NCBI GenBank assembly: GCA_018882975.1
Contig: VEQZ01000001.1
Span: 1-57,126 of the forward strand
Direction of reading: 5' to 3'
DNA: 57,126 nucleotides
DNA from: Rhodocyclaceae bacterium
GTDB taxonomy: Bacteria > Pseudomonadota > Gammaproteobacteria > Burkholderiales > UBA3065
The first letter of the stretch is position 1. Every line of letters starts with the position of its first letter. Under the pieces are notes generated by a model, which saw only the letters and a program-made list of their open reading frames with translations, did no database searches and was not told the origin of the DNA. The translations under genes were made by a program, and so were the position numbers. Below, piece after piece: positions 48,814 to 57,126 of the stretch.

Positions 48814-49608
48814 CTATTGCGGCATCCAGTCAGCTGGAAATTCGAGTGGCGGCAGGCGCGGGATGTTCGGCCGGTCAAGCGCATGAGGCAGGCGCGTAGC
48901 TTGCCCGAATGTTGAGCGCGTTCGTCTCAGGAAGGTGAGTTCGAAAACGCGTGGTGCCAGAAACCCATTCATATTTACGATGCCGCAGGCGTTGTTCGGA
49001 TGGCTGTGAACCACCGCGAACTCTGAAAGGAGCTTTTTAAAAAGGCTGCGCACAATCCCGAAGAAATCCTTCTGAGACCACGACTCGATGTTGTGGAACT
49101 CCACAACCATGATTCTGAATTTGCGCAACGTAGCCATCGGACAAGCAAGTAGCGTGTCGTATTCGCCGCCCTCTATGTCCATCTGCAAGATGAGCGAATC
49201 CTCGATGGCATCGGGCTCCAGGGTCGATACCCAGTCCTCCAAGCTTATGAACTCACCGGCAGTGCTCGCGCCGAGGAATTTGCGCGCGAAGGTCTTGAAA
49301 GGGGTGCCCGAGGGTGGAGCCTCCACAGAGGCATCCGCAAGATGCGAGGGAATCCCGCGCTGGTAGAGACTTGTTTCAAAGGATGCCACCTGATCCACGC
49401 CTGGAGAAAAACAAGCCAAGAGCCCGCCCAGGTCATCCGGCACGAGGTATCCCCCGTCTTGGTCGCCGCCGATTCGTATCAACGGGAACCCGCTCTCGCG
49501 CGGATATAGCGATGCGGCGAGTCCCCGCATGGCGCGGACATCGACCATGGGATCGACGAAGATACCTCTGCTGAACAACTCGTAACGCGGGTTTGAAGGC
49601 GTCGACAC
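48814..49608 (-). CDS. FkbM-like methyltransferase (putative)
   Basis: 264-aa ORF, about 50-52% GC on hand-counted lines. ILQMDIEGGEYDTLL...RIMVVEFHN matches the FkbM-family C-terminal motif (IDxEGxE...E.H). The N-terminal SAM motif is atypical. Confidence 0.5.
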   Translation of the reverse strand: MSTPSNPRYELFSRGIFVDPMVDVRAMRGLAASLYPRESGFPLIRIGGDQDGGYLVPDDLGGLLACFSPGVDQVASFETSLYQRGIPSHLADASVEAPPSGTPFKTFARKFLGASTAGEFISLEDWVSTLEPDAIEDSLILQMDIEGGEYDTLLACPMATLRKFRIMVVEFHNIESWSQKDFFGIVRSLFKKLLSEFAVVHSHPNNACGIVNMNGFLAPRVFELTFLRRTRSTFGQATRLPHALDRPNIPRLPPLEFPADWMPQ

Positions 49609-49747
49609 AGATCACAGGCTCCTTGTCAGAAAACGGATATTCTCGCGCAACGCTAAGCCACGACGCCTGCGAACCTTGCGGACTAGCAAGGCTAGCGCTG
49701 CCGCAACCCGCATTTTCGCGCAGAACCATGCCGGGTAATGCAGGAGG

Positions 49748-54996: not shown

Positions 54997-55009
54997 TTGG
55001 CGAGAGCCG

Positions 55010-57126
55010 TCAACTCGACTCCGGCTCGGCGGGCGGCGTGCCAACCACGGTGGGCTTGACCGGGTCGTCGACCGGGATGACGCGGAACCAGACGTCGGCC
55101 ACCGTGTGCTGGCGGCCACTGTCGGTCGTGTAGCTCGCCACCAGCCCGATCCAGTTGCCGTGGTCGTAGGTGCTGGACGCCGCGCCCCGCGTCTCGATGG
55201 CGACCACACCCGCCTCCCGCAATGACAACAGTTCGCCAGTCTGGCTCAGGCCATCATGGTTCGAGTCGATCCAGACGCGCAAGCGGTCGAAGACAGCATC
55301 CCGCGAATCGATCACACCATCGCCGTTGCCATCCACCGAGCGCAGGGCCTCGAAGCCGTCGCGGGCGCGGGTGCCGTCGGGCAGCAGGAAAGCCTCGCCA
55401 AACAGCTCGCCGCCATCGTCGATGCCGCCGTTGCCATTGACATCGAGCGCCAGCAGACCGTCGCCGCCGGTGACCCAGCCGGTCTGCACCTCGCGGCCCG
55501 TGGCGTTGAGGTCGAACTGCACGCCATCGCGCACGTGAAGCGTCTCGATGCCATCGCCGTCGAGGTCGAGGACGATCGGCGATGCCTGAAGCGCTGCAGC
55601 CTCAGCGGTGCTGATCAATCTGAGCGCCGTCAACTGCTCGTCAGTAATGGCACTCATCTGCGTAGTGTTCAGGTTGGAGAACGACGCCGTACCAAGGGCG
55701 TGCAACTGGTCCGCGGAAAGACGCTGCAATTGGTTCACAGTAAGCGAGCCCAGATTGGCCGTAAGTCCGGCGATGGCCGCAGTGCTGATCTGCTGCAGGT
55801 CATCGATCTCGATCGCCTGGATCTGGCCCGTGGTGAAGTAACTCAGCGTCGTCGACGTAAGGTCATGGAACTGCGCGGTGGTCAGCGCGGCAATCTGCGC
55901 ATTTGTCAGCGCCCCAACCTGCGACGAGTCCAACGCGGCAATCTGCGCCGAATCGAGCACCTGAAGGTCCTCGAACTGGACGACCCTGATCTGCGCGGTG
56001 GTGAGCGCATGGACTTGGTCCGTGGTGAGGACGTCGTACTGCGTCGTGATCAACGCGATCACTTGAGCGGTGGTCAGCGCCTGAACCTGATCCGTGGTCA
56101 GTGTCGGCACCTGCGTCGCCGTGAGGCTCTGCAGGTCGCCCAACTGAATCGCCTTGATCTGATCCGTGGTGATCGCGGCCAGATTCTGAGTGGACAGGTT
56201 CGCATACTGATCAGCCGTCAGCGCCACGATCTCGGACGTGGTGAGGCTGGCGAACTGCGCCGTGGTGAGCGCGTTGACTACAGCGGTACCCATATGCTCG
56301 ATATCGTTGCCGATCGCCTGAACTTGCTCGGCGGTCAATTTGGGAACCTGGGCAACGGTAAGCGCGCCGATCTGCGAACTGGTCAGCGCGTCGATCTGCG
56401 CCGTCGTCAGCGTCGGGATCTGCGTCGTCGTAAGGGCAACAATCTGCCCGGTGGTGAGCCCGACGATGTCGCGCGTCTCGATGGCACGCAACTGGTCGCT
56501 GCCCAGCACCTGCAGGTCGGCCGTCTCAAAGCCCTTCATCTGCGCTGAAGTGAGCGCGGCGATGTCTGCGGTCTCCAGCGCCTTGACCTGGTCGGATGTC
56601 AGCGCGGCGATCTGCGCCGTGGTCAAGCCCGGCATCTGCGCAGTGGTCAGCGCCGCGATCTGATCGGTGGTGAGTTTGCCGATGCGCGTGTCGCTGATCG
56701 CGGCGATCTGCGACGACGTCAGGCTGGCGAGATCCGCCGTCTGCATCGCCACCAGTTGATCGGTACCGAAAGCTGCCACCTGTGCCGTGGTCAGACCGGG
56801 CATCTGCGCCGTTGTGAGTGCAACCACTTGCGCCGTCCGCAGTGCCGCGATGCTGTCGGTCGACAGCGATGCAAGCCGACTGGTGCTCAAGGCGGCGATC
56901 TGGGTGACGAACAAGGCCCTGATCTCACTGGTATCGAGCGTTGCGAGTTGCCCGCTGGTCAGCACTGCGACGTCTTGCGTCTCGATGAAGCTCAGTTGTG
57001 ATGTGCTCAAGGCGGCAAAGTTGGCGGTAGACATGCCAGCGAACTGCTCGGTCGTCAGGGCCATGACCTGTGACGGGGTCAGCAGGCGGATCTGCGCCGT
57101 ATCCAGCGCGTCGATCTGTGCGGTGG
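55010..57126 (-). CDS. Very large secreted-type repeat protein: octapeptide (LTTxQIxA) array + C-terminal Dx[DN]G[DN]G calcium-binding module (N-terminus beyond right edge)
   Basis: Track ORF 55010..57064. The frame stays open and the repeat continues upstream of that Met to the window edge (...TAQIDALDTAQIRLLTPSQV-MALTTEQ...). The C-terminal ~190 aa read VLDLDGDGIETL...LDVNGNGGIDDGGELFG...VDGNGDGVIDSRDAVFDRLRVWIDSNHDGLSQTGEL, a module common in RTX/T1SS-type exoproteins. Confidence 0.85.
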   Translation of the reverse strand, partial: TAQIDALDTAQIRLLTPSQVMALTTEQFAGMSTANFAALSTSQLSFIETQDVAVLTSGQLATLDTSEIRALFVTQIAALSTSRLASLSTDSIAALRTAQVVALTTAQMPGLTTAQVAAFGTDQLVAMQTADLASLTSSQIAAISDTRIGKLTTDQIAALTTAQMPGLTTAQIAALTSDQVKALETADIAALTSAQMKGFETADLQVLGSDQLRAIETRDIVGLTTGQIVALTTTQIPTLTTAQIDALTSSQIGALTVAQVPKLTAEQVQAIGNDIEHMGTAVVNALTTAQFASLTTSEIVALTADQYANLSTQNLAAITTDQIKAIQLGDLQSLTATQVPTLTTDQVQALTTAQVIALITTQYDVLTTDQVHALTTAQIRVVQFEDLQVLDSAQIAALDSSQVGALTNAQIAALTTAQFHDLTSTTLSYFTTGQIQAIEIDDLQQISTAAIAGLTANLGSLTVNQLQRLSADQLHALGTASFSNLNTTQMSAITDEQLTALRLISTAEAAALQASPIVLDLDGDGIETLHVRDGVQFDLNATGREVQTGWVTGGDGLLALDVNGNGGIDDGGELFGEAFLLPDGTRARDGFEALRSVDGNGDGVIDSRDAVFDRLRVWIDSNHDGLSQTGELLSLREAGVVAIETRGAASSTYDHGNWIGLVASYTTDSGRQHTVADVWFRVIPVDDPVKPTVVGTPPAEPESS
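55586..57126 (-). repeat. 24-bp (8-codon) tandem coding repeat array, >60 units in window
   Basis: Register read directly: LTTAQMPG|LTTAQVAA|FGTDQLVA|MQTADLAS|LTSSQIAA|ISDTRIGK|LTTDQIAA|LTTAQMPG|LTTAQIAA|LTSDQVKA|LETADIAA... There is one register break near IGNDIEHMGTAVVNA. Units are degenerate at the DNA level. Confidence 0.9.

Follow-up and report, generated by a model that had tools for sequence, protein, structure and literature searches.

A locus on the minus strand of a contig from a Rhodocyclaceae metagenome-assembled genome appears to pair a giant exoprotein with enzymes dedicated to modifying it in the cytoplasm. The 57,126-nucleotide (nt) stretch analyzed here, referred to as the window, covers contig VEQZ01000001.1 in full, and open reading frame (ORF) calls across it placed five consecutive minus-strand ORFs at positions 48814 to 57126, in the head-to-tail order given by a first-pass annotation made from the sequence alone. 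The gene at the contig end encodes a protein built of ALTTAQ octapeptide repeats and is followed by a fusion of tetratricopeptide repeat (TPR), GT41, and GT4 domains, a class I methyltransferase, a fucosyltransferase-fold (FucT-like) protein, and a marginally scoring member of the FkbM methyltransferase family. Genes related to the first two were found side by side whichever of them was used to search other genomes, and the ALTTAQ protein is predicted, on this basis, to be the acceptor of the window-type GT41, a reading we regard as probable.

An ALTTAQ giant encoded beside an OGT-like enzyme

The repeat protein gene (positions 55010 to 57126, minus strand) has a reading frame that runs uninterrupted up to the window edge over 704 visible codons, in agreement with the first-pass estimate of at least 700 visible residues and an N terminus lying outside the window. 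Against the Pfam family ALTTAQ_rpt (PF20080), the visible part scored 320 bits (E = 7.5e-98; cutoff, 26.4 bits), spread over 19 stretches, and multiple above-threshold matches of this kind identify members of the family. The repeat region itself (55610 to 57126) holds about 59 visible units. Identity autocorrelation was 0.30 at a lag of 8 residues, with peaks at multiples of this lag, compared with 0.04 to 0.10 at other lags, and the repeat logo reads L-[T/S]-[T/S]-A-Q-[I/V/L]-A-A. Ser or Thr was present at repeat positions 2 to 3 in 54 of 59 units, which bears out the earlier statement that each 8-residue unit offers one or two such residues in a fixed context. The protein's final domain is a homolog of FrpC's self-processing module (SPM), a feature absent from the first-pass annotation.

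The next gene does encode a single protein with Pfam TPR, Glyco_transf_41, and Glycos_transf_1 domains, as first read. Its TPR and GT41 part lies at 53122 to 54996 and its C-terminal GT4 domain, of the GT-B type, at 51844 to 52659 (both minus strand). The catalytic Glyco_transf_41 domain (PF13844) matched at 252.9 bits (E = 6e-75; cutoff, 25) and is preceded by TPR_1 and TPR_2 matches, the arrangement expected of the GT41 family. Among solved structures, the nearest to the GT41 part was XcOGT of Xanthomonas campestris (PDB 2JLB, E = 1e-97), followed by human OGT (E = 1e-76) and SPINDLY (E = 1e-44), and in the phmmer alignment to 2JLB the catalytic residues His218 and Lys388 of XcOGT are identical in the window enzyme. 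By homology to XcOGT and human OGT, the first sugar would be of the N-acetylhexosamine (HexNAc) type, taken from a UDP-sugar. An identity as an HMW1C-type N-glycosyltransferase was considered and ruled out, the corresponding model (NF049992) scoring 14.8 bits against a cutoff of 1000. The C-terminal part belongs to the GT4 family by its above-threshold matches to PF00534 (Glycos_transf_1; E = 6.6e-17, 62 bits; cutoff, 26.4) and PF13692 (E = 3.7e-18, 66.6 bits; cutoff, 27), accompanied by NCBIfam GT4-type matches. None of the four enzymes of the locus contains a transmembrane-like segment.

The start of the GT41 gene bears on its distance from the repeat gene. Translation can begin at a GTG at 54996 or, as in the NCBI annotation (P0001, 1010 amino acids [aa]), at an ATG at 54876, 120 nt further in, and the 13-nt gap originally noted holds only for the GTG. 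About 15 residues upstream of the NCBI ATG are conserved in orthologs, and one ortholog has Leu in place of the Met. This upstream conservation favors the earlier start and therefore makes a short gap to the repeat gene plausible; the deposited annotation probably starts the gene too late.

The pairing is found in both search directions

For the forward test, species genomes were searched with aligned C-terminal domains and nothing else; this recruited at least 570 relatives, and 79 loci were retained. All 79 contained ALTTAQ repeats. A window-type GT41 was present in the flank of 34 loci (29 of the 61 in which at least 9 kb of downstream sequence was present), and in 22 the two were immediate neighbors on one strand, with GT41 downstream and the genes often overlapping or only about 4 nt apart. 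In the reverse test, the GT41 part alone recruited 80 metagenome loci, 67 of them with upstream sequence; an ALTTAQ/SPM gene was found in 49 of these 67 and was directly upstream in 40. The first-pass annotation had conceded that its proposal would fail if homologous repeat proteins never neighbored glycosyltransferases in other genomes, and such neighbors now appear in both directions.

Inspection of individual loci gave the same picture. Six GT41 homologs examined singly (45 to 86% identity) all adjoined ALTTAQ giants, the shortest of 2,123 aa and the longest exceeding 6,000 aa. In locus L001, the C terminus of the giant is followed by GT41-GT4, the Methyltransf_24 (MT24) gene, and the FucT-like gene; in L002, a 3,080-aa giant is followed 4 nt later by GT41, and L003 has the same giant-GT41 order. 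Pseudomonas sp. J452 and Pseudomonas syringae encode giants of 6,283 and 2,123 aa, respectively, each followed by GT41 and by the full gene set for an outer membrane protein (OMP), a membrane fusion protein (MFP), and an ATP-binding cassette (ABC) transporter. In L007, a giant exceeding 6,000 aa is divergent from GT41-GT4 and a large sugar-tailoring cluster. Four Comamonadaceae/Rhodoferax loci (L020, L041, L061, and L066) carry FkbM-GT4-FkbM-FucT-like-MT24 plus GT41 beside an ALTTAQ gene, which is the enzyme set of the window in another arrangement. GT4 stands as a separate gene in these four loci as well as in L067 and L080, and is fused to GT41 in the window, L001, and L090. The ALTTAQ-GT41 neighborhood spans Pseudomonas, Burkholderiales, and Rhodocyclales, and in a neighbor-joining tree with XcOGT as the outgroup the window GT41 groups with orthologs that are all ALTTAQ adjacent.

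XcOGT itself was considered as a member of the same system and rejected, its Xanthomonas ortholog following hemA-prfA with no ALTTAQ gene nearby. In locus L088, this ortholog (positions 8919 to 11707) lies downstream of hemA and overlaps the prfA stop codon by 4 nt. The position downstream of hemA-prfA is held by prmC in many bacteria, and translation factors are candidate substrates of this ortholog. A separate observation concerns locus L058, in which two tandem short ALTTAQ genes (785 and 820 codons, counted stop to stop; positions 6098 to 10915), each with an SPM-like end, lie 4 kb from fliD-fliS with no GT41 in the flank.

The repeats resemble a designed helical screw

The fold of the repeat protein matters for any account of its Ser and Thr residues. 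By sequence comparison, the repeats matched HeliScrew4, a designed 8-residue helical screw (PDB 9ZEM, E = 1.7e-14). The 8-mer alpha-helical screw was recently reported from design work as a new structural unit, with Ser, Thr, Asp, or Asn at the helix N caps and an apolar core (PDB 9ZEM). An AlphaFold2 (AF2) model of 192 repeat residues, confident only in its center (pLDDT, 71 to 92), contained helices of 4 to 5 residues every eight residues, each beginning at the second Thr of the unit. Because the modeled helices start there, the first Thr would be the N cap. A fold search with this model returned no significant PDB match, the best being mesothelin (E = 5e-3). From the 9ZEM match and the periodicity of secondary structure, the repeat body is predicted to be a rod in which every octapeptide forms a short helix capped at its N terminus by Thr, and the designed fold seems to have a very abundant natural form in ALTTAQ proteins.

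An SPM-like C terminus with a Ser-Pro or Thr-Pro junction

The domain following the repeats (55091 to 55579, minus strand) has the junction QAS/PIVLDLDGDG. Residues 516 to 678 of the visible protein matched the FrpC module structures PDB 6SJW and 6SJX (phmmer, E = 2.8e-35), and the SPM family PF26745 is annotated on the orthologous fragment in L001. The features of the SPM fold are retained, including the D-x-[DN]-x-D-G calcium loops, which are EF-hand-like, the TGW and RVW motifs, and the equivalents of FrpC W451, W519, and D579. In FrpC, the module folds on binding Ca2+ and, by way of an anhydride formed by the Asp, cuts an Asp-Pro bond at its N-terminal edge (PMC7078468). The window protein has Ser-Pro at this junction. 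Thr-Pro or Ser-Pro was found at all 113 junctions tabulated, none of which had the scissile Asp-Pro, and also in 33 of 33 junctions from a set recruited without bias on that residue. The C termini compared came from the window and from loci L002 to L087 and L090 to L169. The equivalent of FrpC D478 is mostly Ser or Thr in the SPM-like domains of ALTTAQ proteins. Because Asp-Pro is replaced and the D478 equivalent is mostly lost, the domain is labeled SPM-like here rather than a clip-and-link module, and anhydride chemistry of that type is unlikely to operate in it. The Asp-less domain may instead be a noncleaving cap that folds on calcium, or a module with a different chemistry.

Beyond this domain the window protein has only a Pro-rich tail (55010 to 55090, including the stop codon) of about 24 residues past the DVWF motif. 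A Pfam scan of the repeat protein found no HemolysinCabind (PF00353) match, and the Gly/Asp-rich nonapeptide block that marks RTX proteins is absent from it. A comparison of extreme C termini after the SPM-like domain (loci L015 to L087, last 10 to 30 residues) separated three types: a Pseudomonas type with a length of about 121 aa and the ending ...DG(D/E)(I/V)QLLVA..., a Duganella/Massilia type ending in ...G(F/I/L)L(A/T)A.K/R, and a short Pro-rich type of 22 to 40 aa to which the window protein belongs. The three types may mark different routes of export or anchoring.

Enzymes predicted to extend and cap a putative glycan

The three remaining genes encode candidate tailoring enzymes. The third gene of the locus (51027 to 51722, minus strand) matched Methyltransf_24 (PF13578) at 30.4 bits, above the cutoff of 26.3, so the class I methyltransferase assigned at first sight stands; this S-adenosylmethionine-dependent enzyme falls in a TylF/MycF-like group. 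Its orthologs share the cassette in L001, L020, L041, L061, L066, and L090.

For the fourth gene (49748 to 50950, minus strand; the ORF is open to 51124, with the likely start a Met at 50950), the fucosyltransferase assignment rests on fold and motif rather than on a Pfam family. No Pfam model matched significantly, the O-FucT family (PF10250) reaching only E = 0.028 and 14.5 bits against a cutoff of 31.5. The AF2 model had a pLDDT of 94, and the top 41 Foldseek matches were all to the GDP-fucose fucosyltransferases NodZ, POFUT1, FUT1, and FUT8 and to no other enzymes (probability, 1.0; TM score up to 0.55). R164, T166, and D167 of its HLRRTD motif were invariant in 52 homologs, which supplies the conserved Arg of the HxRRxD type that accompanies this fold. 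The protein also has a C-terminal TPR-like helical domain. In total, 73 homologs were collected, some with a Pfam O-FucT match and some fused to FkbM; the FkbM methyltransferase domain was observed as a fusion in homologs P0137 to P0139 and P0157. Such fusions suggest that the fourth and fifth genes of the window are functionally linked.

The fifth gene (48814 to 49608, minus strand) narrowly passed the Pfam cutoff for FkbM (PF05050, 24.5 bits; cutoff, 22.7) but fell below that of NCBIfam TIGR01444 (20.6 bits; cutoff, 37.7), so the FkbM-like label of the first-pass annotation is kept as a marginal one. Orthologs at E values of about 1e-100 are present in the Comamonadaceae cassettes. By analogy with the FucT-FkbM fusions and with the NodZ/NoeI precedent, a methylated deoxyhexose is a plausible constituent of the product. 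The details of the glycan are held with much less confidence than the identity of its acceptor, and any composition is purely inferred.

Genomic setting and base composition

The locus sits among chromosomal core genes, including a convergent PAS-MCP gene, cydAB, rpoD, dnaG, and dprA. The gaps after the GT41-GT4, MT24, and FucT-like genes are 121, 76, and 139 nt, and a promoter and terminator scan found no sites of either kind at the locus above shuffle expectation. Lower GC in the distal genes had been reported from hand counts of about 50 to 55% on several 60-nt lines, against 70 to 80% elsewhere. The drop is real but was overstated, with values of 57.5 to 62.8% compared with 67.8% for the window; GC at third codon positions (GC3) was 68 to 73% in the three distal genes and 81 to 91% in core genes. 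Elsewhere in the window, the rpoD-cydB interval (42832 to 44758) contains ORFs that match no Pfam family, of 295 aa (minus strand) and 192 aa (plus strand), and a local dip in GC to 0.58 to 0.63.

A proposed pathway and the evidence that weighs on it

In the reading preferred here, the locus would encode a giant exoprotein together with dedicated cytoplasmic enzymes for its modification. The soluble TPR-GT41 enzyme would bind unfolded, partly folded, or nascent repeats through its TPR domain and place a first O-linked sugar on repeat Ser or Thr residues. Next, the glycan would be lengthened by the GT4 part of the fusion and by the enzyme with the fucosyltransferase fold, and the two methyltransferases would cap it. 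The modified protein would leave the cell, by way of a type I secretion system encoded past the contig end, and its SPM-like domain would fold upon meeting extracellular Ca2+. Type I secretion is the most likely export route for the window protein: ABC and MFP genes flank 27 of the 79 forward-test loci, and the Pseudomonas ALTTAQ-GT41 pairs lie beside a complete system. Exact-sequence look-ups of three window proteins, made to extend the contig, had no match, and because the window is the entire contig, the N terminus and any secretion genes cannot be recovered from it.

Several observations weigh against this pathway. The contig ends inside the repeat gene and the window contains no secretion genes, and we know of no precedent for a glycosylated polypeptide passing through a type I channel. 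In roughly half of the ALTTAQ loci, the 10 kb that follow downstream contain no GT41. The abundance of Thr, which the first-pass annotation listed among its observations, is not in itself evidence of glycosylation. The first Thr of each repeat would serve as a structural N cap, and Thr-richness is therefore explained without glycosylation; in addition, ALTTAQ proteins whose genes adjoin a GT41 and those whose genes do not have the same frequency of Ser and Thr at repeat positions 2 to 3. This equality fits a structural role and argues neither for nor against glycosylation. GT41-linked ALTTAQ proteins showed a weak shift toward Thr over Ser (P = 0.02 to 0.04, uncorrected for multiple tests or phylogeny). 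The remaining contrary evidence is flagellar: a nested GT41 subclade, 58 to 61% identical to the window enzyme, adjoins flagellin and has no ALTTAQ gene, several ALTTAQ-GT41 pairs lie inside fliD/fliS clusters, and GT41 enzymes are recorded in flagellin glycosylation islands (PMC4875605).

These flagellar links support a different explanation, in which the cassette belongs to a flagellin glycosylation island, its enzymes modify flagellin alone or along with the repeat protein, and the ALTTAQ gene is a frequent passenger or neighbor of flagellar regions. The GT41 recorded in such islands is of the SPINDLY type (PMC4875605). Exceptions to ALTTAQ adjacency in the reverse test formed one subclade, nested among ALTTAQ-adjacent lineages in the neighbor-joining tree, in which GT41 has a type I system on one side and, directly downstream, a flagellin gene that is itself followed by fleQ-like, fliF, and fliG genes. 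Locus L002 (1 to 15678) has the order fliD-ALTTAQ-GT41-three methyltransferases-fliS, and fliD, fliS, or flagellin genes are also near ALTTAQ genes, with or without GT41, in L056, L058, L086, L151, L156, and L163. Such repeated proximity suggests coregulation or a functional tie to flagella.

The flagellar location that defines these islands is, however, found in some relatives and not in the window, where no homolog of flagellin, FliD, or FliS was detected over 57 kb. The Pseudomonas pairs adjoin a type I system in 20-kb stretches free of flagellar genes, and fliD or fliS was near just 3 of the 79 ALTTAQ-recruited loci. Direct ALTTAQ-GT41 adjacency, in contrast, was seen in 40 of 67 and 22 of 61 loci, with gaps often near zero. 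Flagellin as the substrate of the window cassette is thus unlikely. The first-pass annotation had accepted that its proposal would be undone if these glycosyltransferases demonstrably acted on flagellin, and gene context points both ways: the window and Pseudomonas loci, free of flagellar genes, speak for the ALTTAQ protein, and the flagellin-adjacent subclade and the recorded islands (PMC4875605) speak the other way.

The loci of the flagellin-adjacent subclade share a layout of their own. In L118, and also in L111 to L117, L120, L124, L131, L159, and L169, the GT41 gene adjoins flagellin; L118-type loci carry a type I system of two ABC genes, MFP, and OMP, a flagellin of 295 aa, no ALTTAQ gene within 10 kb, and no visible substrate gene for the type I system.

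A role of GT41 mainly as a TPR chaperone or secretion adaptor for the giant, with glycosyl transfer minor or absent and the downstream genes serving an unrelated glycoconjugate, would account for some of the same data and is improbable. TPR domains serve in protein binding, the partner that stays constant is GT41 where the accessory tailoring genes are variable (4 to 6 of 79 loci), and the deviating GC3 of the distal genes suggests their separate acquisition. Against it, both catalytic residues (His and Lys) are conserved, the alignment to XcOGT takes in the whole GT41 catalytic domain at E = 1e-97, a second family has this accessory set specifically next to ALTTAQ genes, and GT4 is fused to GT41 in three loci, the window among them. 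Synthesis of a polysaccharide or lipid-linked glycan of the lipopolysaccharide (LPS) or exopolysaccharide (EPS) kind, with an incidental repeat gene nearby, is very improbable: O-antigen and EPS clusters commonly contain GT4 enzymes and methyltransferases of the FkbM and TylF-like kinds, some weak NCBIfam GT4 matches are to such families, and L007 has a large nucleotide-sugar gene set beside GT41, but characterized GT41 members are protein glycosyltransferases, the five genes include no polyprenyl-phosphate transferase, flippase, or polymerase, and the two-way conservation of the ALTTAQ neighborhood far exceeds coincidence.

A broader form of the preferred reading, in which the ALTTAQ protein is the acceptor, can be stated as a speculation that we hold to be doubtful. 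ALTTAQ giants could be helical-screw rods densely O-glycosylated in the cytoplasm by an OGT-type enzyme and exported by type I secretion as mucin-like glyco-fibers, with the transferase lineage having been swapped between rods and flagellin, and the Thr/Ser-Pro SPM variant could run a different calcium-triggered reaction. In that case ALTTAQ giants would be the first glycoprotein substrate class of type I secretion and would form a native enzyme-substrate pair with a bacterial OGT homolog.

Relation to known systems

That a secreted repeat protein may have its own cytoplasmic glycosyltransferase is already known from HMW1/HMW1C, from serine-rich repeat (SRR) proteins and their Gtf enzymes, and from flagellin islands. 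One close counterpart is HMW1/HMW1C (with ApNGT and EtpA/EtpC), in which a GT41-family enzyme lies beside a very large secreted repeat or fiber protein, as in the window, and the shared features extend to predicted cytoplasmic action before export and a short glycan. HMW1C-type enzymes, however, lack TPRs and attach an N-linked hexose to Asn, whereas the window enzyme is OGT-like and has TPRs, and the HMW1 substrate is a beta-helix of the two-partner secretion (TPS) type, whereas the window protein would be an ALTTAQ helical screw that is likely exported by a type I system. SRR adhesins (Fap1, GspB, and SraP, with GtfA/GtfB) share the logic of a Ser/Thr-rich repeat adhesin, a cytoplasmic initiating transferase of the O-GlcNAc type, lineage-variable extending enzymes, and dedicated export. 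They differ in being Gram positive, with GT4-type GtfA/B, accessory Sec export, and disordered repeats, where the window has a GT41 initiator, predicted folded repeats, and probably type I export.

Caulobacter FlmG is a TPR-glycosyltransferase of flagellin glycosylation. Flagellin glycosylation islands with GT41, as in enterobacteria (PMC4875605), have in common with the window a TPR and glycosyltransferase enzyme, variable sugar-tailoring and methyltransferase genes, and a substrate that is Sec independent (predicted for the window), but the gene directly upstream in the window and most relatives is an ALTTAQ giant and not flagellin. The clip-and-link RTX proteins FrpC and ApxIVA (PDB 6SJW; PMC7078468) share the homologous C-terminal domain and belong to a family linked to type I secretion; they differ in their scissile Asp-Pro, which is Ser/Thr-Pro in ALTTAQ members, in the D478 position, and in the RTX nonapeptide block that ALTTAQ members lack. 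XcOGT (XCC0866), the best structural homolog, has the same TPR and GT41 architecture and catalytic residues but falls in another clade, and its Xanthomonas ortholog has the distinct hemA-prfA setting.

The first-pass annotation did not recognize the arrangement as described, and no description of an OGT-like GT41 with an ALTTAQ giant was found in the searchable literature. Searches for ALTTAQ or PF26745 returned nothing, matches to PF20080 were unrelated, and only unrelated papers came up when type I secretion was combined with GT41 or OGT. The pairing of an OGT-like TPR-GT41 with a helical-screw giant, an Asp-less SPM-like end, and probable type I export thus appears to be both undescribed and widespread.

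Significance

Bacterial OGT homologs have been structural models of the human enzyme since 2008, and to our knowledge native substrates have been established for very few of them. The locus offers a defined candidate enzyme-substrate pair for these homologs that is conserved across hundreds of genomes. Separately, the Asp-less SPM variant is relevant to protein-ligation tools based on FrpC. If the preferred reading is correct, dedicated adhesin glycosylation would extend to proteins secreted by the type I route, whose passage is assumed to take place in an unfolded, unmodified state. It would also point to evolutionary exchange between the glycosylation of flagellin and that of giant exoproteins, and the ALTTAQ repeat, the apparent natural counterpart of the designed helical-screw fold, would acquire a biological role.

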